Both the position numbers and the translations under genes were made by a program. Shown one piece after another: positions 46,581 to 55,738 of a stretch of DNA of 64,000 nucleotides. The DNA lies in the NCBI GenBank assembly GCA_036002405.1, contig DASYTK010000013.1, positions 3,459-67,458 on the forward strand, read 5' to 3'. Below the pieces are notes generated by a model that worked only from the letters and a program-made list of their open reading frames with translations, had not been told where the DNA came from and searched no databases. The stretch comes from Candidatus Limnocylindrales bacterium (GTDB lineage Bacteria; Chloroflexota; Limnocylindria; Limnocylindrales; CSP1-4). Position 1 is the stretch's first letter, and each line of letters starts with the position of its first letter.

Positions 46581-47846
46581 ATGCTCTACCTCAGCCAGGT
46601 CATCGGCCGTCCCGTGCGCGACGGCCAGGGGGAGTCGATCGGGAAGGTCGCCGACCTGATCGTGGCGCTCGGCGATCGCTACCCGCCCGTCACCGGGCTC
46701 GTCGTGATGACCGACCGCCGGCGGATCTTCCTGCCCTGGTCGGACGTGGCCAGCTTCGACGCGTCGGGGGCGACGCTGGCGACCTCGATCATCGACATCG
46801 GGAAGTTCGCCCAGCGGCCGAACGAGCTGCTTCTCTTCCTCGACCTCCAGGACAAGCAGATCGTCGACCTCGACGGCCGCAAGGTCGTCCGGGTGAACGA
46901 CCTCGTCCTCGACGAGATCGAGGGCAAGCTCCATCTCGTCGCGGTGGACGTCGGTCCCGCCGGCCTGCTCCGTCGGCTCGGCGTCGAGGGACCGGTTCGG
47001 ACGCTGGCCCGGAACCTGGGGCGCTCGGTGCCCGAGCGATTCATCGACTGGGAGGACGTCGACCCGCTCGAGAGCTCGATCGCCTCGATCCGCCTGCGCG
47101 TCCCTCACCGCGGCCTGCGCGAGCTCCACCCGGCCGATCTCGCCGGGATCATCGACGAGCTGGCACCTCGAGATCGGGCCGGGATTCTGGCGACGCTGGA
47201 CGATGAGATCGCGGCCGATGCGATCGAGGAGATGGAGCCCGACACACAGGTCGAGGTCATGGAGGACCTGGCGCCGGAGCGGGCGGCCGACATCCTCGAG
47301 GAGATGAGCCCCGACGATGCCGCCGACCTGATCGCGGACCTGTCGGACACGGCGCGGGACCGGATCCTGCCGCTGATGGAACGCGAGGAGGCCGAGGAGG
47401 TGCAGGAGCTCCTGGGCTATCCCGAGGACAGCGCGGGCGGGATCATGACGACCGAGTACATCGGGATCCCGGCGACGCTCAAGGCGAGCGAGACGATCGA
47501 CCGGCTCCGCGAGCTCGAGCCGGACGCCGAGACGATCTACTACGTCTACGTCGTCGACGAGGCCGGCAAGCTGGTCGGCGTCCTCTCGCTCCGCGACCTG
47601 ATCGTCGCCCCGGCCGACGCGGTCGTGCGCGACTTCATGCTCGGCGAGCCCGTCGCCCTCGGAGTCCTCGCCGACCAGGAGGAGGTCGCCCGCGTCGTGG
47701 CTCGATACAACCTGCTCGCCGTTCCGGTCGTGGACGACGAGGGGCGGCTCGTGGGGATCGTCACAGTCGACGATGCGCTCGATACGGTATTGCCGACTGC
47801 CTGGAAGCGGCGGCTGCCCCGGGTCTTCAGCCGGGGCGGGGGCTGA
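46581..47846 (+). CDS. cytosolic PRC-barrel + MgtE-N + tandem-CBS protein (MgtE-like Mg2+-sensing module lacking the membrane domain)
   Basis: PRC-barrel-like VIGRPVRDGQGESIGKVADLIV, the acidic MgtE_N helical bundle, and a CBS pair (IYYVYVVDEAGKLVGVLSLRDL...VPVVDDEGRLVGIVTVDD). No TM segments. A GAGGTGG SD precedes ATG 46581. Confidence 0.75.
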   Translation: MLYLSQVIGRPVRDGQGESIGKVADLIVALGDRYPPVTGLVVMTDRRRIFLPWSDVASFDASGATLATSIIDIGKFAQRPNELLLFLDLQDKQIVDLDGRKVVRVNDLVLDEIEGKLHLVAVDVGPAGLLRRLGVEGPVRTLARNLGRSVPERFIDWEDVDPLESSIASIRLRVPHRGLRELHPADLAGIIDELAPRDRAGILATLDDEIAADAIEEMEPDTQVEVMEDLAPERAADILEEMSPDDAADLIADLSDTARDRILPLMEREEAEEVQELLGYPEDSAGGIMTTEYIGIPATLKASETIDRLRELEPDAETIYYVYVVDEAGKLVGVLSLRDLIVAPADAVVRDFMLGEPVALGVLADQEEVARVVARYNLLAVPVVDDEGRLVGIVTVDDALDTVLPTAWKRRLPRVFSRGGG

Positions 47847-49219
47847 TGCGGCTGCCGGCCGCCCCGGAGGGGGTCCGCCGTCGGGTGCGGGCGGCCGGCT
47901 CGGAGCTCGGGCCGCTCGCGCGATTCCGGGAGCGGATCGCGGCAGGCGACCTCTTGCGACTGCGTCCCCGCTTCCGAGGTCGGGGCCTGCTCGCGTTCCT
48001 CGCCGTCATGGGCCCCGGGCTGATCGCGGGCATCGCGGGGAACGAGGCGGGTGGCCTGACGACCTACTCGGTGCTCGGCGCCGAGACCGGCTTCCGGCTG
48101 CTCTGGCTGTTCCCCCTGACGACCGTCGTCCTGATGATCGTCCAGGAAATGGCCGCTCGGTTGGGCGTCGTCACCGGCCAGGGCCTCTCCGACCTCATCC
48201 GCGACTGGTTCGGGGTCCGCTGGACGGCGTTCGCGATGCTCGTCCTGTTCGTCGCGAACCTGGGCCAGACGATCGCCGAGTTCGCGGGAATCGCGGCCGC
48301 GCTCGAGATCTTCGGCCTGCCGCGGCTGCTCACCGTGCCCTTGACGGCGGTCGCCCTGTGGGCGCTCGTCCTCTTCGCGAGCTACCGGACCGTCGAGCGA
48401 GTCTTCCTGTCGGTCATCCTCGTCTTCGTCACGTACATCGTGTCGGCCTTCGTCAGCGGGCCGGACTGGGGAGAGGTGGGACGGGCGCTCGTCACGCCGA
48501 GCTTCGAGCTCGCTCCGGCGACGCTCCTGCTCATGGTCGCGCTCGTGGGCACGACGATCACGCCGTACATGCAGTTCTACCTCCAGTCGGCCGTCGCCGA
48601 GAAGGGGATCGACGAGGAGGAGCTCCGGCTGGAGCAGGCCGACGCGGTCGGAGGCGCGATCTGGACGAACGTCGTCGCGCTCTTCGTCGTCGTGGCCACG
48701 GCCCAGACGCTCCACGCGGCGGGGGTGCGGATCACGGACGCGGCCGACGCCGCGCAGGCGCTGGGACCCGTGGCCGGGGAGCTCTCGACCGCCCTCTTCG
48801 CGATCGGGCTCTTCGGAGCAAGCGTGCTGGCGGCGATGATCCTGCCGATCAGCACCTCGTTCGTCATCTGCGAGGCGTTCGGCTGGGAGTCCGGGGTCGG
48901 GAAGCCCTTCCGGGAAGCACCCGCCTTCTTCGGGATCTACACCGTGACCCTGTTCGCAGGTGCGGTGATCGTCCTCCTCCCCTTCCTGCCGCCGCTCATC
49001 GACGTCCTGCTCTTCACGCAGAACCTGCAGGGGTTGCTCCTGCCGATCGTGCTCGTGTTCATGTTCCGGCTGGTGAACAACGAGCGCCTGCTGGGTCGCC
49101 ACGTGAACGGCCCGATCCGGAACGCCTTGACGCTGGCGGCGATCGTGCTGGTCGTGGCCCTCGACGCGATCCTTCTAGGAGTCGGCGCGCTCGAGGCGAT
49201 CGGTCTTCGGCTCGGCTGA
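47846..49219 (+). CDS. NRAMP-family transporter with non-canonical metal-site residues (NRMT-like)
   Basis: About 11 TM segments. TM1 reads MGPGLIAGIAGNEAGGLTT, where EAGG replaces the canonical DPGN. TM6 reads GTTITPYMQFYLQS, where TPY replaces MPH. ATG overlaps the upstream stop (TGATG). Confidence 0.8.
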   Translation: MRLPAAPEGVRRRVRAAGSELGPLARFRERIAAGDLLRLRPRFRGRGLLAFLAVMGPGLIAGIAGNEAGGLTTYSVLGAETGFRLLWLFPLTTVVLMIVQEMAARLGVVTGQGLSDLIRDWFGVRWTAFAMLVLFVANLGQTIAEFAGIAAALEIFGLPRLLTVPLTAVALWALVLFASYRTVERVFLSVILVFVTYIVSAFVSGPDWGEVGRALVTPSFELAPATLLLMVALVGTTITPYMQFYLQSAVAEKGIDEEELRLEQADAVGGAIWTNVVALFVVVATAQTLHAAGVRITDAADAAQALGPVAGELSTALFAIGLFGASVLAAMILPISTSFVICEAFGWESGVGKPFREAPAFFGIYTVTLFAGAVIVLLPFLPPLIDVLLFTQNLQGLLLPIVLVFMFRLVNNERLLGRHVNGPIRNALTLAAIVLVVALDAILLGVGALEAIGLRLG

Positions 49220-49226
49220 GACGCGA

Positions 49227-49415
49227 CTACGGGATGAAGCTTCCGGCGTCTCCGTCCGGAACGGCCCCGATCTTCTCGGTCAGCTCCTCCACGGTGCCGT
49301 GCCTGATCAGCTCCGGGCGGACGTACGGCTCGCGGGGAGGCGCGGCGGCGCCCTTCGTACCCGCGTCCTCCAGCCCGAGGCTGGCGGTCGCGCTCTCTGG
49401 CGTTCGGGTCTCCAT
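49227..49415 (-). CDS. candidate lasso-peptide precursor (62 aa; leader with YxxPxLxxxG motif, predicted core KIGAVPDGDAGSFIP)
   Basis: Small ORF translationally coupled to the cyclase (stop/start ATGA at 49424-49427), with a second ATG preceded by an AGGAG SD. The leader ...EPYVRPELIRHGTVEELTE matches the Y-x2-P-x-L-x3-G-x5-T-x motif bound by PqqD-like RREs. Confidence 0.5.
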   Translation of the reverse strand: METRTPESATASLGLEDAGTKGAAAPPREPYVRPELIRHGTVEELTEKIGAVPDGDAGSFIP

Positions 49416-49423
49416 CGATCTCC

Positions 49424-51370
49424 TCATGCCTGATCGGCCAGTTCGGCGTCGTGGCCATTGTCCACCGCCGGCGCAAGAGCCGCAGCGCTCGCCAGCGTCC
49501 GACGGCGGAGCGTTCGCGCTTCCATCCAGGCCTCGACGGCAACCGCGTTGATCACTCGTGGATCCAGGTCCCTTCGGTTCCGTCGATACGCCGCCCAGGC
49601 CGACCAGAGACCGGCCGGATCGGCGAGGACCGCCCTCGATGCGACGAATCCGCTGAGCAGGCGCTCGATCCGCGGCGCTTCGTGTTCGAGCAGGCCTCGC
49701 TCCACGAGGTCGGTGATCGTCGCCTTGGTCGTGCGTAAGCGGATCGTCTCCGGCAGCAGCCCGATCATCGCCTCCCTCAGCACTGCCCGCCCCCATCCGG
49801 CTCGATAGAGGACGGGCCGCGGCAGGTTGAGCGTGAAATCGACGAGGCGCCGGTCGAGGAACGGAAAGCGCCACTCGACCCCGGCATGACTCGCAAGCTC
49901 GTAGAACTCGACCCGGTACCAGGCTGTGAGGCCGTTGTGGAGACCTTCGTAGGCCAGTCTCGCGGCCCGGGTCCGGAGGGGCGGGGCCGGGAGCGGGTCG
50001 ACGAAGGATTCCGAGCGCGGCTGGGCGGGACGCAACCCGTTCCGACGCCTGCTCCGCCTGAGCCGCCCCAGGGAGGCCCGCAGCCGCGGCGCGAGGCTCG
50101 CCCGCACCGATTCGCGTGCCAGGATCCGGAGGCCCCGGCGCCGGGAGAGCCGCCAGAAGTGCGGAAGCTCAACGGCGAAGTCGCGCAGCGACACGTCTCG
50201 CCAGAGGCGCGGAGCCAGGTGGTACGGCGTGGAGACGAGGATCTCGTCGCCTCCGTGGCCGCTCAACAGGACCCGCAACCCGTCGGCGTGGGCGGCCCGA
50301 AGCGCGCCCACCGAGAGCGCCCGGAACATGAACGGGTCGGGCTCGGGCAGTGGATATCCGGCGTCGTCGCCGAATTCGCGGAGCGCCCATCGGTCGTCGC
50401 TCGGGATCAGCGTGATCGGGCTACCAGGCAGGCACTCGAGGAGCGCGTCGAGGTAGCGCCGCTCGTCGGCGGCGGGCGAGCGTTCGTACACGTAGGAGTA
50501 GAGCCGAGGGGCAGGGACGGCGCCCTCGTCGCTGGCGCGGCCGGCGAGCGCCGCGATCGCTGACGAGTCGAGCCCGCCGCTGACTTTGATCGCCACCGGT
50601 CCGACGCTGCGGAGCCGGGCGCGCACCGCCAGGTCGAGGAGATCCCCGAACCGCTCGACGTAGTCGTGCTCGGAGCGGAGGGGCTGCTCGACCTGCGCGC
50701 CAGAGATCCAGAACCGTCGCAGTCCCACCTCGCCGTCGGCGGCTTGCAACTGATAGCCCTGCGGCAGCCGCGAGATGGGCCGGTAGGCGGTCTCGGTCGT
50801 CCATCGATCCCACTCGCCGAGGACGATCTCGGCGAGGAGCGGCTCGTTCAGCGGTGCGTCGCCGCCGAGGCCGGCAAGGACGGCGTCGACGCCAGAGGCG
50901 AAGACGAGGAGTGACCCGTGGCGCGCGTAGTAGAGCGTCCGGATCCCGGCTGGATCTCGCGCGCAGAGCAGGCGACCGGCGATCGAGTCCCAGAGCCCGA
51001 AGGCGAAGTCGCCGATCAGGTGGGTCGGACAGTCGCTGCCCCACCGCTGATAGGCGGCCAGGATGAGCTGCGCGTCGCTGGGAATGCCGGGCGGCAGGTA
51101 CCCGGCCAGGATCGGCAGCAGCTCTTCCCGGTTGTCGATCCGCGCGTCGGCCGCGACGCAGACGTGCCCGCCGTGGCCCACGAGGGGCTGACGCTCGCCG
51201 AGCTCCTCGGGGGTCGTCCACGAATGGGCATGGATGAGCGCGACGTGCCCCCTGCTCCACCGGTCGATCCCGTCCGGGCCCCGGTGGCGCAATGCTTCGG
51301 TCAGGCTGGCAAGCAGGCTGGGGTCGACCGGCTGACCGGTCAGGTCCAGGAGCCCTGCGATCGCACTCAT
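49424..51370 (-). CDS. lasso-peptide cyclase (asparagine-synthetase-like, C protein)
   Basis: AsnB-like fold with N-terminal MSAIAGLL lacking the catalytic Cys (MCGI to MSAI). PP-loop region SGGLDSSAIAA. ATG at 51370 overlaps the stop of the upstream gene (ATGA). Confidence 0.8.
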   Translation of the reverse strand: MSAIAGLLDLTGQPVDPSLLASLTEALRHRGPDGIDRWSRGHVALIHAHSWTTPEELGERQPLVGHGGHVCVAADARIDNREELLPILAGYLPPGIPSDAQLILAAYQRWGSDCPTHLIGDFAFGLWDSIAGRLLCARDPAGIRTLYYARHGSLLVFASGVDAVLAGLGGDAPLNEPLLAEIVLGEWDRWTTETAYRPISRLPQGYQLQAADGEVGLRRFWISGAQVEQPLRSEHDYVERFGDLLDLAVRARLRSVGPVAIKVSGGLDSSAIAALAGRASDEGAVPAPRLYSYVYERSPAADERRYLDALLECLPGSPITLIPSDDRWALREFGDDAGYPLPEPDPFMFRALSVGALRAAHADGLRVLLSGHGGDEILVSTPYHLAPRLWRDVSLRDFAVELPHFWRLSRRRGLRILARESVRASLAPRLRASLGRLRRSRRRNGLRPAQPRSESFVDPLPAPPLRTRAARLAYEGLHNGLTAWYRVEFYELASHAGVEWRFPFLDRRLVDFTLNLPRPVLYRAGWGRAVLREAMIGLLPETIRLRTTKATITDLVERGLLEHEAPRIERLLSGFVASRAVLADPAGLWSAWAAYRRNRRDLDPRVINAVAVEAWMEARTLRRRTLASAAALAPAVDNGHDAELADQA

Positions 51371-52599
51371 CGAACGGCCCGGACGCGGCCGGGGAGCGCG
51401 AGGAGCCGGGGGACGTACTTCCTCGTGAGACGAAGGGGGCGGATGGCACGATAGGCGATGGGCAGGCGTCGAGCGCCCGGCAGGGCATCCCAATCGCCGC
51501 GGGTGGGCGTCGACAACGCGGCCCAGACGAGCGCCACGCGGTCGCGCGCCCGTTCCCGGACCTGGAGGTCGAACCGTTCGAGGCCCTCGAACAGGCGATC
51601 GTCGCGTCCGCGCCCGCCCTCCATGAGACGAGCGTCGATCCACTCCGCCAGGCGTCCGGCCGTGGCATCCCTCGCCATGTTGGCCGCCACCTCGGGCGGG
51701 ATCGTCGCGCCCCCGATCGTCTCGGCCAGACGCAACGCGATGGCAAGGATCCGATTGATCCCCTCTCTCCGCGCCCGGACCACAACGCGATCCCAGTCGA
51801 GGAAGGGCTCGGCTGCGATGAGCGCGGCGACGTCGGCGATCCAGGCCAGCCGTCCCCAGCGGTGCTTCGTCCCGTGGATAGCGAGTGCGAGCAGCAGGTC
51901 ATCGAGCGCCAGGTCATTGACCGGCACACCGCCGAGCGAGGTCACCCGCAGGCGCTCCCAGATCGATTCGGCGTCGAAGCCGCGGGAGTAGTAGGTGGGC
52001 ACGACAGTCCAGTGGATCTCGACGAAGGCCCTGCGACCGGGCGCCTGGAGCTGCACCTCACCGATCCGCTCGAGGTAGGCGCTCTCCTGCCAGTCCGGAA
52101 GCGGGTGGAACCGCTCGTAGCCGCGCTCGAGCAGGAGTCCGACGGATTCGGCGATCCGGCCCCGCGGCACGATGATGTCGAGATCACCGAACTGGCGCAG
52201 GCCGAGGTCACCGTAGGCGGACAGGGCGAGGAGGGGCCCCTTCCAGGGGACGGCCGGGATGCCCGCCTCGGCGAACGTCGCCAGGATCTCCATGAGGCGA
52301 CCGGTCAGGGCGAGGTTCCGATCGGCGATCGCCCGCGCCCTGGTCGCGATCGCAACGGCCGCGTCCGGAGGAACGAGCCCGCCCCAGCCCGCCGCCGCCC
52401 GAGCCAGGAGAGGGACCAGCGCGTGTCTCTCCGCGGCAGCCAGCAGACCCGTCCAGTCGAGCCCGCGCGCCTCGGCCGGCGTGACCGAGGGCGGATCGGC
52501 GGGGAAGCGAGCCAGCGCGCGGAGGATCGTCGGCTCGCCTGAGACTGCCTCGGGCGTCCGATCCGCGGGAACCGCCGAAACTCCCGCCGCCATCGTCAT
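51367..52599 (-). CDS. nucleotidyltransferase-family protein of the lasso cluster (putative tailoring enzyme)
   Basis: Minimal-NTase motif GPLLALSAYGDLGLRQFGDLDIIVP. ATGA overlaps on both sides. Confidence 0.65.
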   Translation of the reverse strand: MTMAAGVSAVPADRTPEAVSGEPTILRALARFPADPPSVTPAEARGLDWTGLLAAAERHALVPLLARAAAGWGGLVPPDAAVAIATRARAIADRNLALTGRLMEILATFAEAGIPAVPWKGPLLALSAYGDLGLRQFGDLDIIVPRGRIAESVGLLLERGYERFHPLPDWQESAYLERIGEVQLQAPGRRAFVEIHWTVVPTYYSRGFDAESIWERLRVTSLGGVPVNDLALDDLLLALAIHGTKHRWGRLAWIADVAALIAAEPFLDWDRVVVRARREGINRILAIALRLAETIGGATIPPEVAANMARDATAGRLAEWIDARLMEGGRGRDDRLFEGLERFDLQVRERARDRVALVWAALSTPTRGDWDALPGARRLPIAYRAIRPLRLTRKYVPRLLALPGRVRAVR

Positions 52600-53552
52600 G
52601 CCGGATCCTGGGCGACGATCCGCACCGCTTCGTCGAGCCGCGTCAGGTCACGCGGTCGCCGCAGCCGATCGATCGGGACCCCGGAGACGACCCTGGCGCA
52701 CTGGCCGAGGTGCTCCCCGGCGGTCCCGGAATCGAGCAGGACGCGGGCAAGGAACGAGTGCCGCACGAGCTCCGCGATCGCATCGAGCGAAGCGATCCGC
52801 TCCCTCTCGACGCGGCGCCCCTCCGCGAGGACGTGGATCGCGGCCAGGGGAAAGGGCCTCTCCCCCGCCGGCTCGATCGGCCGGCCGCGTTTCTGGCGCG
52901 CGAAACCGAGAGGAACCACCGCCCGGTCCTCCTCGCCCAGGAAGGTGGCGGCCGCAGGGGTGAGCTTCAGCATCGGAACTCCCGGATGAAGCACCGGGGA
53001 GCCCGCGGCGATCTCGATCGCGGCGAGATCGTCGGTGAGCACCGTCATCCCGGCACGCCGACAGGCGGCGGCGAGCGTCGACTTGCCGGCGCCGGGTTGG
53101 CCGAGGAACAGGTGGGCCCGCCCGGCCATCAGGATCCCGCTCGCGTGCAGGGCCAGGTGGCCGCGCTGATGAAGGAGAAAGGCGAGCCCGGGACCGAGGA
53201 TCATCGCCCGCAGCTGCTCCCCCGACGCGCCGGGCGCCGCCTCGACGACGATCTCGCGGCCGGCCTTCACCTCGAGGGCGCCGATCCCGTCGTAGACGAG
53301 GCGGGCGAGGTCCCTCTCCACCCGTCGCCGCCCCATCCTGAGCGACATCGGGATCATGTGCTCGTCGTGTTCGAGAGTCCCGCGCCGGACGGTCGCGACC
53401 GGATCGCCCGCCACCGGATGAAGCTCGGGCAGAGGCAGCTCCGAATCGAAGATCACGCCGTAGGCCCGATAGCGCCGGTCGGCCGCGCCGATCTCGGACC
53501 TGTGGCCCTCAGATCGCGTTGGCGATGCGCGATTCCACCGATACCGACCCAT
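52596..53552 (-). CDS. HPr-kinase-related (HprK-like) serine kinase of the lasso cluster
   Basis: HprK C-domain P-loop GILMAGRAHLFLGQPGAGKSTLAAACRRAGMTVLTDD. N-terminal RYRAYGVIFDSELPLPEL resembles lasso tailoring kinases. Start uncertain (ATG 53552, GTG 53591 or GTG about 53458). Confidence 0.65.
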   Translation of the reverse strand: MGRYRWNRASPTRSEGHRSEIGAADRRYRAYGVIFDSELPLPELHPVAGDPVATVRRGTLEHDEHMIPMSLRMGRRRVERDLARLVYDGIGALEVKAGREIVVEAAPGASGEQLRAMILGPGLAFLLHQRGHLALHASGILMAGRAHLFLGQPGAGKSTLAAACRRAGMTVLTDDLAAIEIAAGSPVLHPGVPMLKLTPAAATFLGEEDRAVVPLGFARQKRGRPIEPAGERPFPLAAIHVLAEGRRVERERIASLDAIAELVRHSFLARVLLDSGTAGEHLGQCARVVSGVPIDRLRRPRDLTRLDEAVRIVAQDPA

Positions 53553-53979
53553 CGCTCCTTCCCGACTCACGACGAAGCTGGGTAAAGGCACGCCGCTCTT
53601 CTCCGCCGACCACGATCGTCTCGCCTGCCATCACCCATGCGTGCGCCCTGAGTCGCTCGCCCGGGGAACGCGCCACCCCGATCTGAAGCTCGCTGGGGAC
53701 TCCCGAGCGAGCCAGGAGCAGCTGTGCGGCAAAGGCCTGCGTGAGGCAGCTCGCGCCCGGTACGACGCGGCTTGCGGCGCGCACCGCCCAGCCCACCCTG
53801 GCCACGTCGATCGGGGCACGTCCACTCGTGGCGCGCGATCGGCCGAGCACGAACGCGTGGACCCGACGGAACGAGAGCAGCGGCAGGACGGCACGAGTCG
53901 ATGCGACCGCGATCAACGCCTGGAGCACCAGTCTCCGATCGGCCATCGACAGGCCGAGGAACCTACGCAGCCTCGCCAT
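53509..53979 (-). CDS. lasso-peptide leader peptidase B2 (transglutaminase-like Cys protease)
   Basis: Catalytic-Cys region ASCLTQAFAAQLLLARSGVPSELQIGV and a His region LRAHAWVMAGE. Overlaps B1 by 17 nt. Confidence 0.75.
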   Translation of the reverse strand: MARLRRFLGLSMADRRLVLQALIAVASTRAVLPLLSFRRVHAFVLGRSRATSGRAPIDVARVGWAVRAASRVVPGASCLTQAFAAQLLLARSGVPSELQIGVARSPGERLRAHAWVMAGETIVVGGEERRAFTQLRRESGRSDGSVSVESRIANAI

Positions 53980-54283
53980 CGCCCCGTCGGGCGCCAGGGG
54001 CCTCGGTCTGGATGAGTCCCTGGCCGTTCAATTCCGTCATGAGGGCGATGAGATCGGCTTCGCAGCGCTCCGGCTCGACGTCGTACTCGCCGACGATCGT
54101 GTCCCGGATCTCGCGCACCGACCGGCGGCGCTCGAGGAGGCGCCAGATCCGGGCACCCACCCGGTTGAGCCCGTAGTAGACCCCGGCGTCCAGGTCGAGC
54201 AAGGCCGCCTCGCCGGAGAGATCGGCCGAGACCACGCGCGGCGTGGCCCAGACGACCGTGTCGAGCGTCATGTCCACGGGCAC
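53963..54283 (-). CDS. lasso-peptide B1 protein (PqqD-like RiPP recognition element)
   Basis: 106 aa with GEAALLDLDAGVYYGLNRVGARIWRLL....CEADLIALMTELNGQGLI, the canonical PqqD/RRE pattern. Confidence 0.8.
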   Translation of the reverse strand: MPVDMTLDTVVWATPRVVSADLSGEAALLDLDAGVYYGLNRVGARIWRLLERRRSVREIRDTIVGEYDVEPERCEADLIALMTELNGQGLIQTEAPGARRGDGEAA

Positions 54284-54307: not shown

Positions 54308-55738
54308 TCAGCCCACGTGCTCGCCGGTCCCCCGCTCGACCGGATAGCCGGCTGCGCGCCACGAGGGCACGCCACCGCTGACCCACCCGACCCGCTCGAA
54401 GCCGGCCTGGCGGAGCAGGCTCGCGGCGACGGACGAGCGATAGCCCGAGGCACAGATGGTCACGATCGGCCGGTCGCGAGGCAGCCGATCGAGCCGCTCC
54501 GGGAGGTCGCCCGCCATCAGGTGGACGGAACCGGGGATGTGGGCTCGCTCGAACTCGTCGCGCTGGCGGACGTCGAGGATGAGCGGTCCCCGTCCATTCG
54601 CGGCCGGGACGTCACGCTCCCCGGTAGCGAGCAGGTCGTGGAGTTCGCCGACCGTGAACCGGCCGCTCGCCTCGACCGGCCCGCCCGAGCCCTGCCAGGC
54701 TTCAAAGCCCCCGTGCAGGTAGCCTTCGATGCCCTCGTATCCGATCCGCAGCGCCTGGCGGACCGCGTCGTCCCACTCCGCGGTCGAGGCGAGAAGCAGG
54801 ATGAGCGGCCGGTCGTGGGGCACGACCCAGCCAAGCCACGTCCCGAACGAGCTGCCGGCGGGGATCGAGATCGAGCCCGGGACGTGCGCGAGGATGTGCT
54901 CGGCCGGGCTGCGCAGGTCGACCAGGAGATGATCACCCGCCAGGAGCTCACGCACCCGGTCCACCGGCAGCGGCTGGGCCTCGGGCAGGCGCCCGATCGG
55001 GCGTGGCCCCTGCTGGTTGATCGGCCGCATCCGGGCGAAGTACCGGGGATAGGCGGGCTGGTCGGCCAGGAGCGTCCGGACGAAGGTCTCGACGTCCTCG
55101 ATCGCCAGCAGGCCGTCGTGCCGCCGCTCGTAGCCGAGCGTGCTCCAGGGCGTCGAGGCGATCGACTTCGAGCAGAGCGACCCGCCGCCGTGGGTCGGAT
55201 AGATCGCCACATGATCGGGGTGGGGAAGGATCCGCTCGTGGAGCGAGGCGTGCATCTGGCGTGCGAATGACTCCGCGTTTTCCGCGCCGAGCAGATCCGT
55301 CCGTCCGACCGCGCCCACGAGCAGAGACCCACCCGTGAACATCAGGAGCGGCTCGTCGGCCCGACTCCGGTCGGCCACGGCATAGCAGACGTGCTCAGGC
55401 GTATGGCCCGGCGTCTCGAGCGTCGTGAAGCGGATCGAGCCCACGTCGAAGGCGTCTCCCTGCCGCAGGGCCTGGTACGGCTGCGCGAGGTCGGCCCCTG
55501 CGCCGATCACGTGCCGGGCGCCGGTGAGCTCGACGAGCTCGCGGGCACCGGAGACGTAGTCGTTGTGCAGGTGCGTCTCGGCGACGTGGCTGATCCGGAG
55601 CCCCCGCTCACGCGCGGCGTCGAGGTAGACGTCGACGTCACGGCGCGGATCGACGACCGCGGCGATCCCCTGGGTCTCGTCCGCGACGAGCGCGCTGATA
55701 TGGCCAAGGCCCGGGACGACGAACTGCCGCAGGTCCAT
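54308..55738 (-). CDS. MBL-fold metallo-hydrolase fused to two rhodanese domains (persulfide-dioxygenase/sulfurtransferase-like)
   Basis: N-terminal HxHxDx motif ETHLHNDYVSG plus downstream metal ligands. C-terminal rhodanese with active-site loop ICASGYRSS. Ends 24 bp before the lasso B1 start on the same strand. Confidence 0.7.
   Translation of the reverse strand: MDLRQFVVPGLGHISALVADETQGIAAVVDPRRDVDVYLDAARERGLRISHVAETHLHNDYVSGARELVELTGARHVIGAGADLAQPYQALRQGDAFDVGSIRFTTLETPGHTPEHVCYAVADRSRADEPLLMFTGGSLLVGAVGRTDLLGAENAESFARQMHASLHERILPHPDHVAIYPTHGGGSLCSKSIASTPWSTLGYERRHDGLLAIEDVETFVRTLLADQPAYPRYFARMRPINQQGPRPIGRLPEAQPLPVDRVRELLAGDHLLVDLRSPAEHILAHVPGSISIPAGSSFGTWLGWVVPHDRPLILLLASTAEWDDAVRQALRIGYEGIEGYLHGGFEAWQGSGGPVEASGRFTVGELHDLLATGERDVPAANGRGPLILDVRQRDEFERAHIPGSVHLMAGDLPERLDRLPRDRPIVTICASGYRSSVAASLLRQAGFERVGWVSGGVPSWRAAGYPVERGTGEHVG

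Follow-up and report, generated by a model that had tools for sequence, protein, structure and literature searches.

Current rules for lasso peptides, which are knotted natural products of bacteria, place the start of the core two residues behind a conserved Thr of the leader and hold that the first core residue is small (usually Gly, also Ala, Ser or Cys, which is typical but not obligatory), that the acidic acceptor of the macrolactam lies at core position 7-9, and that the associated kinases act on a C-terminal Ser. Here we analyse a candidate lasso peptide precursor of 62 amino acids (aa) that departs from some of these rules. Its open reading frame (ORF) lies on a 64-kb stretch of DNA (71% GC; hereafter the window) from a metagenome-assembled genome (MAG) of Candidatus Limnocylindrales (Chloroflexota).

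The closest described systems are the paeninodin/pseudomycoidin-type clusters (Pade, Thco, Syan and Psm, with PsmN optional), which are ordered A-C-B1-B2-D-(N)-K with an ABC exporter and whose precursors start with Ala, form a nine-residue ring and end in a phosphorylated Ser. PadeK, ThcoK, SyanK and PsmK phosphorylate the C-terminal Ser of the linear precursor (PMC9266682, PMC6993621), and His-Lys-Asp-Asp residues are essential in kinases of the paeninodin type (PMC9266682). In the case of PsmK and PsmN, the Ser is phosphorylated and then glycosylated (PMC6993621); PsmN, an NTP_transf_5 enzyme, is needed to add hexoses to the phosphate, and it has been proposed that the bulky groups so added lock the thread (PMC9266682, PMC6993621). 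Huascopeptin, which has a Gly1-Asp7 ring (PMC9784485), and the xanthomonins combine a core of 13-16 residues with a seven-residue macrolactam. In the class V peptides triculamin, lariocidin and gelatinamin, a proven ring connects Ala1 or Ser1 to Asp8 with Lys as its second residue, and a clostripain-like transpeptidase later links the ε-amine of this Lys to the C-terminus (PMC13178200). Finally, the linear polyphosphorylated peptides (LPPs; LppK, LppN, LppB, LppS) are linear products of clusters whose leader peptidase is SpI-type and whose exporter is MsbA-like, which have no cyclase or B2, and in which LppK, an HprK-like kinase of ribosomally synthesised peptides with post-translational modifications (RiPPs), phosphorylates the internal Ser3 (PMC13381572).

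The window locus is an operon of overlapping, translationally coupled genes on the minus strand in the order B1-B2-K-N-C-A (Table 1). It shares with the paeninodin/pseudomycoidin type the split B1/B2, the Asn-synthetase-like cyclase, the YxxPxL...T-x leader, the HprK-like kinase with its His-Lys-Asp-Asp residues and the NTP_transf_5 homologue, and differs from it in that the A gene stands last, in that there is no exporter, and in that the predicted core has Lys1, Asp7 and an internal Ser within a Gly-Ser-Phe (G-S-F) motif. Huascopeptin and the xanthomonins resemble the window peptide in core length and in the size of the predicted ring; unlike it, they start with Gly, lack tailoring enzymes and any role for a Lys, and come from Streptomyces and Xanthomonas. 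Class V shares with it the conserved Lys six residues before the acceptor Asp, and its cyclases belong to one broad clade with that of the window; K and N homologues are also present in metagenomic relatives. However, in the window peptide Lys directly follows Thr-x (+1), a clostripain-like peptidase is absent, and PDG followed by GSF stands in place of the class V PGDG motif. With the LPPs it has in common an HprK-like kinase and an NTP transferase, a YxxP leader and a putative internal phospho-Ser, whereas the cyclase and B2 set it apart. Judged by these features, the locus is a tailored system resembling the paeninodin/pseudomycoidin type, and neither class V nor an LPP. A separate LPP-type pathway served by K and N was considered and rejected: the operon and its surroundings hold a single RiPP recognition element (RRE), no peptidase other than B2 (none of the SpI type) and no second precursor.

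The minus strand from 49427 to 49227 translates as MRRSMETRTPESATASLGLEDAGTKGAAAPPREPYVRPELIRHGTVEELTEKIGAVPDGDAGSFIP, followed by a stop codon. According to the preliminary description of this DNA, the 62-aa ORF starts in an ATGA overlap with the cyclase stop codon. The overlap is there (ATG 49427-49425, TGA 49426-49424), but it starts a 66-aa form; the 62-aa form (METRT...), which NCBI annotates as a hypothetical protein, starts at the second ATG (49415-49413), ahead of which we confirmed the AGGAG Shine-Dalgarno sequence (49424-49420, 4-nt spacer). The leader motif described as canonical proved to be so: it combines an RRE-binding [Y/W]xxPx[L/V/I] element with a Thr at the penultimate leader position, the strict pattern Y..P.L...G.....T. 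occurs a single time in all six frames of the window (as YVRPELIRHGTVEELTE), exactly 15 residues and a stop codon follow it, and the NCBIfam model NF033521 (lasso_leader_L3) recognises the 62-aa form with 19.1 bits, just over its cut-off of 19 (18.9 for the 66-aa form). The score with NF033528 (lasso_cyano), 14.9 bits, is below the cut-off of 33, and NF033534 (rhodolasso) gave no match. The leader of about 47 aa had been called long; the length is right, but 36-53 aa is normal in the family.

High-GC DNA produces many spurious ORFs, as it does across this window, and the NCBIfam score is marginal, which raises the question of whether the frame is open here by chance and the real substrate is encoded elsewhere. 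We regard this explanation as effectively refuted. The leader motif is unique in the window; the GC content at codon positions 1/2/3 (0.71/0.56/0.89) follows the same pattern as in the cyclase, nucleotidyltransferase, kinase, B2 and B1 genes; and in independent metagenomes homologous cyclases are directly followed by homologous peptides whose leader and core are conserved, a precursor-type ORF at the end of the cyclase gene being the arrangement in nearly all related loci. As to the earlier suggestion of a substrate further upstream of B1, beyond 55.7 kb, B1 itself lies at 54.0-54.3 kb, and no other candidate precursor is found in or around the operon. Given its place in one operon with B1, B2 and an Asn-synthetase-like cyclase, we are highly confident that the 62-aa ORF is a genuine lasso peptide precursor gene (A).

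Queried with the peptide alone, a word-indexed database gave back just the peptide itself. Relatives were gathered through homologues of the cyclase and inspection of the ORFs downstream of them, followed by an exhaustive phmmer and profile search; about ten distinct relatives were found, all of them metagenomic. GTDB representative genomes gave no relative either with the cyclase as a single query or with the pattern TEK[ILF]G[AIV][IV]PD, so at that stringency the family is absent from species-representative genomes. A metagenome scan with an alignment of 12 cyclases returned, among the matches listed, mostly distant cyclases (29-44% identity) and no new close relatives. The two closest cyclases are 58% and 56% identical to that of the window, and in their precursors a leader end in ELTE is followed by Lys: YAPPRMIRLGTVNELTE before the core KFGVIPDGGGGGSFGGI in contig L001, and YIPPTITRLGTVTELTE before KIGAIPDGGGGGSFGGI in contigs L006 and L091. 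Lys also comes directly after Thr-x in P0124, P0125 (ELTE, then KLGIIPDGGGAGSFIP), P0126, P0132, P0135 and P0136, while P0129 and P0137 have Gly-Lys there instead. The top phmmer match, P0122 (1784 aa), was discarded as a chance hit, since it is a protein with a 152-aa repeat in which KDGDAGSF occurs ten times; P0128 is likewise unrelated.

In an unguided MAFFT alignment of nine members (A2), the residues Y31, P34, G40, L45, T46, K48, G50, D54, G58, S59 and F60 are invariant. Where a small residue would be expected at core position 1, Lys48 follows Thr-Glu, as had been pointed out before, and its invariance in about ten distinct relatives argues that Lys at +1 is a selected feature of the family; Trp1, Tyr1 and Leu1 are known among lasso peptides. 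Both Asp7 and Asp9 had been put forward as the acceptor. Since D54 (Asp7) is invariant and D56 (Asp9) is Gly in four relatives, Asp7 is the predicted acceptor, within the usual range of 7-9. The C-terminal Pro, earlier counted among the atypical traits of the core, is present but carries no signal, because the C-termini of the relatives vary (IP, GGI, LD, LTS, IPPG, or extensions of 10-25 residues). Upstream of this variable end, Gly-Ser-Phe stands out from the alignment as the conserved tail motif of the family. The association with tailoring enzymes recurs as well: L091, a 1.27-Mb JGI contig (3300066659, Ga0604940_0000003), carries at 409713-429925 a full cluster with the same enzyme set, K and N included, with a thioredoxin gene, the cyclase and five tandem precursors on one strand and the NTP_transf_5, HprK-like kinase, B2 and B1 genes on the opposite strand. 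In L088 and L089, a kinase gene directly follows the precursors.

On sequence grounds, we propose that B1 binds the YVRPEL motif of the leader and that B2 cleaves after Thr46-Glu47, which would free the 15-residue core KIGAVPDGDAGSFIP. The cyclase would then adenylate Asp54 (core Asp7) and couple it to an amine of Lys48 (core Lys1), the α-amine being the default assumption for the closing group. Lys1-Asp7 closure of this kind would yield a seven-residue, 22-atom ring of the size found in huascopeptin, and the tail GDAGSFIP would thread this ring with Ser12/Phe13 placed at it as the lock. The HprK-like kinase is predicted to phosphorylate Ser59 on the linear precursor, and the NTP_transf_5 enzyme to decorate the phosphate further in a PsmN-like manner. 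The objection that a 22-atom Lys1-Asp7 α-amine ring would be too small was dismissed, given that the Gly1-Asp7 ring of huascopeptin shows a ring of this size to be threadable. Taken in full, this scheme of a class II lasso peptide tailored by a kinase and a nucleotidyltransferase strikes us as reasonably probable.

Several points weigh against it. The NF033521 score barely exceeds its cut-off, and no exporter (ABC or other) or immunity gene adjoins the cluster. Every characterised lasso kinase targets a C-terminal Ser (PMC9266682). The literature searched does not report Lys as residue 1 of any characterised lasso peptide; in the searchable literature, which is incomplete, we found neither such a peptide nor closure onto a Lys side chain by a lasso cyclase, and the 'Lys1x' matches in the lasso literature examined turned out to be Lys10, Lys16, Lys17 or Lys18. 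Lastly, paralogues in L091 have three to four extra residues between Thr-x and Lys, which casts doubt on either Thr-x cleavage or the α-amine nucleophile.

We surveyed the spacing of Lys and Asp in 94 distinct cores that share this leader type and whose loci encode related cyclases. An acceptor candidate, taken as an acidic residue at or beyond position 7, is present in 93 of them. In 39/93 cores a Lys stands exactly six residues before the first such acid, whereas any other single offset has a Lys in 0-10 of the 93 and the background Lys frequency is 6.7%. Among the 54 cores without Lys at -6 the acid is at position 8 in 39 and at position 9 in nine; with Lys at -6 it is found at 7, 8, 9, 10, 11 and 13, and the distance from Thr-x to the acceptor Asp ranges from 7 to 13 residues. 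When the acid is at position 7, the core starts with Lys in 12 of 14 cases, and the remaining two have Asp8 as well. Cyclases that go with Lys(-6) cores fall into three clades: the G-S-F clade (window, L001, L006, L091); a second clade (L012, L037, L038, L075, L024, L036, L044, L055; mutual identity 41-63%) with acids at 7, 9, 10 and 13; and a triculamin-like clade with cores of the form [A/S/T]K.G...DG. Examples from the second clade are GCDKQLGSTDGFTFMG..., QDKRYGSSDGFTFLG..., KVIGFGDAII... and QKIIKPKTPGSSDD..., which keep the K-x5-D spacing constant with the acid at 7-13; several cores of this clade have no Asp or Glu at the canonical positions 7-9.

In L091, one cyclase and one B2 serve five cores (KIGAIPD..., GAPGKGGPGLD..., GNVKTGPGFD..., GITKGGIAAD... 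and ALPKNGPDID...) in which Lys is at +1, +5, +4, +4 and +4, respectively. Cleavage at Thr-x with α-amine closure would demand rings of 7, 11, 10, 10 and 8 or 10 residues from a single cyclase, while the reported ring-size tolerance of the permissive fusilassin cyclase is +/-1. As the position of Lys varies and the K-x5-D spacing stays constant, the ring register follows Lys: it seems to be set by the K-x5-D element and not by the distance from Thr-x. In this small, metagenomic and uncharacterised precursor family the conserved Lys, and not the usual cleavage site, thus appears to place the ring. Tandem arrays are also seen as such: L091 (10001-11008) and L006 (1767-2528) have four to five precursors per cyclase with the common tail G-S-F, with Lys at +1, +4 or +5 from Thr-x and Asp always six residues after it. 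In L088 (338-529) and L089 (305-496), a third tandem precursor, in which LTA is followed by LPGSQPGGPGGSQDLAG, has no Lys and a sole acidic residue at position 14, and fits neither the canonical nor the K-x5-D pattern.

How Lys would set the register can be read in three ways. In the first, B2 would cut directly before Lys wherever it is placed, with a Lys1-Asp7 α-amine ring as the outcome. By analogy with the Gly1-Asp7 ring of huascopeptin this is chemically feasible, and for the window peptide the product is the same as with canonical cleavage; it does need cleavage after Pro in two members, the fifth L091 precursor (ALP/K) and L024 (KP/K).

Alternatively, cleavage could be canonical and the macrolactam could join the ε-amine of Lys48 to Asp54, leaving the α-amine free, in a 26-atom ring of the same size as the canonical eight-residue Glu ring; residues between Thr-x and Lys (0-6 overall, 1-6 in paralogues) would then stay as an N-terminal stub. 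The constant K-to-D spacing against a Thr-x-to-Asp distance of 7 to 13, the ring sizes that α-amine closure would impose on the single L091 cyclase, and the same pattern in the second clade all favour this arrangement, as do the near-restriction of the seven-residue spacing to cores with Lys at position 1, the Pro that a cut before Lys would have to follow, and the residue after Thr-x in stub-bearing members, which is the G, A, S or Q expected of a genuine P1'. Yet use of a side-chain amine is not known for any lasso cyclase, the Lys+1 precursors P0145 and P0154 have their only Asp at position 9, as fits ordinary α-amine chemistry, and the stub-bearing paralogues are possibly never processed. 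Moreover, nuclear magnetic resonance (NMR) of triculamin/gelatinamin, where K-x5-D is formed by Lys2 and Asp8, gives an Ala1-Asp8 α-amine ring with a free Lys2 that is later linked to the C-terminus by the clostripain-like enzyme (PMC13178200). Lys at -6 is thus not always the ring nucleophile, and we no longer count the K-x5-D spacing of cores of the form [A/S/T]K.G...DG in favour of Lys closure. On balance, ε-amine closure is unlikely for the window peptide, and equally tentative is its extension to the lasso cyclases of the window family and the second clade, which would all close a side-chain-to-side-chain ring of constant size onto the conserved Lys, with a free N-terminus or a short stub.

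In the third reading, the ring would have eight residues throughout, with Lys at ring position 2. The leader peptidase would in that case cut relative to Lys, between Thr46 and Glu47 in the window peptide, to give a 16-residue core, EKIGAVPDGDAGSFIP, with a Glu1-Asp8 ring. Eight-residue Asp rings are indeed the norm in the cyclase clade (the 39/54 cores without Lys at -6), Lys is ring residue 2 in the only K-x5-D family with a solved structure (PMC13178200), and the paralogue pair GKTGTNADGDAGSF and KLGSSSDGDAGSF aligns Lys to Lys. Against this, Thr would be placed at P1 when it is strongly conserved at P2, Pro would have to act as the N-terminal nucleophile in the fifth L091 precursor and in L024, and the residue before Lys varies widely (E, A, R, Q, G, T, D, V, N, W, P). 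We consider this improbable for the window peptide, for which B2 cleavage after Thr46-Glu47 and closure by Lys1 is the reading we carry forward.

Next, the tailoring enzymes. H149, G169-K170-S171 and D187-D188 are invariant in 32 kinase homologues including that of the window, and H149, K170, D187 and D188 correspond to the essential His-Lys-Asp-Asp residues; a PsmN-type NTP_transf_5 enzyme is encoded alongside. A C-terminal phospho-acceptor Ser is missing: Ser59, the sole Ser or Thr of the core, lies fourth from its end. That the only Ser is internal had been noted correctly, and it is invariant within G-S-F. In a survey of 48 precursors beside a kinase homologue, 12/48 end in Ser and 23/48 have no Ser in their last four residues, so that the published C-terminal-Ser rule does not describe the metagenomic diversity, and with the Ser3 phosphorylated by LppK as a precedent an internal phospho-site is less exceptional than the earlier account held. 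Examples of kinase-adjacent precursors in this set are those of L010, L011, L018, L035, L045 and others, most of which do not end in Ser. Being invariant, the only core hydroxyl and adjacent to Phe60, Ser59 is likely the target of the kinase and the nucleotidyltransferase, with Ser(P)-Phe as the putative lock; the characterised kinases with their C-terminal Ser make this assignment an inference. The precursor could be correctly identified and the two enzymes nonetheless be inactive, or act on another substrate or a residue other than Ser59. The failure of the C-terminal-Ser rule in this clade and the inactivity of LppN in heterologous expression (PMC13381572) speak for this view, which we find doubtful in light of the invariance of Ser59, the intact catalytic residues of the kinase, and the translational coupling of K and N in the operon and recurrence of both in L091.

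As a separate observation, triculamin/lariocidin-like precursors ([A/S/T]K.G...DG.G.P.T...) on six metagenome contigs (L053, L076, L078, L080, L081 and L085) lie beside HprK-like kinase homologues, often with an NTP_transf_5 homologue adjoining too; such a pairing was not found in the class V literature covered.

The lasso rules underlie both genome-mining tools and engineering work. The window locus and the roughly 90 related cores reveal a sizeable branch of kinase-associated lasso clusters, as yet uncharacterised, that breaks these rules with a regular pattern: Lys and Asp keep a fixed spacing, the Thr-x-to-Asp distance drifts, and the conserved Ser is internal. If Lys sets the cleavage or is the nucleophile, cores would have to be predicted differently, the chemistry of lasso cyclases would be widened and engineering would gain a new scaffold whose N-terminus is free; with side-chain closure in particular, two free ends would lie on the same side of the ring, a lasso-like topology so far undescribed for lasso cyclases. 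For Limnocylindria (Chloroflexota), a lineage in which no cultured producers are known, the locus would also be a first tailored lasso system.

Table 1. Coordinates of the precursor, its parts and the surrounding genes in the window.
Feature	Position	Strand	Evidence or remark
Precursor gene (A), 62-aa form including stop codon	49227..49415	-	NCBI VGQ47_01325; NF033521; third-position GC (GC3) 0.89
Leader peptide, residues 1-47	49275..49415	-	Motif unique in six frames; Y31, P34, G40, L45, T46 invariant
RRE-binding and cleavage motif YVRPELIRHGTVEELTE	49275-49325	-	Pattern match
Predicted core KIGAVPDGDAGSFIP, 15 aa	49230..49274	-	K48, G50, D54, G58, S59, F60 invariant; D56 not conserved
Codon K48	49272-49274	-	
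Codon G50	49266-49268	-	
Codon D54	49254-49256	-	Predicted acceptor
Codon D56	49248-49250	-	
Codons G58-S59-F60	49236-49244	-	
Lasso cyclase (C), 648 aa, asparagine-synthetase-like	49424..51370	-	NF033535 E = 6.7e-115; PF00733, PF13537; identical to NCBI protein P0002
NTP_transf_5 nucleotidyltransferase homologue (N), putative PsmN-like tailoring enzyme	51367..52599	-	PF14907 E = 3.4e-53; counterpart in L091
HprK-like kinase (K), start codon uncertain	52596..53591	-	TIGR04352 partial match; H149, G169-K170-S171, D187-D188 invariant
Leader peptidase B2, transglutaminase-like Cys protease	53509..53979	-	NF033537 86.9 bits vs cut-off 33; PF13471
RiPP recognition element B1, PqqD family	53963..54283	-	PF05402 E = 2.8e-19; NF033536 E = 2.5e-17
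MBL-fold hydrolase fused to two rhodanese domains	54308-55738	-	Ends 25 bp upstream of B1
NRAMP transporter, convergent, downstream	47846-49219	+	Stop 7 bp from the peptide stop codon

The kinase ORF overlaps the end of B2, which is why its start codon is uncertain. Scans of the operon for sigma-70 promoters and intrinsic terminators gave nothing above shuffled expectation, and neither the gap between the NRAMP and peptide genes nor the DNA around them yielded a terminator-like structure. The MBL-fold/rhodanese gene and the lasso operon may be transcribed together; the gene ahead of the cyclase in L001 and L091 encodes a thioredoxin instead. In L002 (10174-11352) and L004 (10642-11928), whose cyclases are 41-46% identical to the window cyclase, the precursor is directly followed by a gene for a protein of 390-430 aa with a PqqD (RRE) match, which may be an RRE-fused tailoring enzyme, and then by a kinase homologue.

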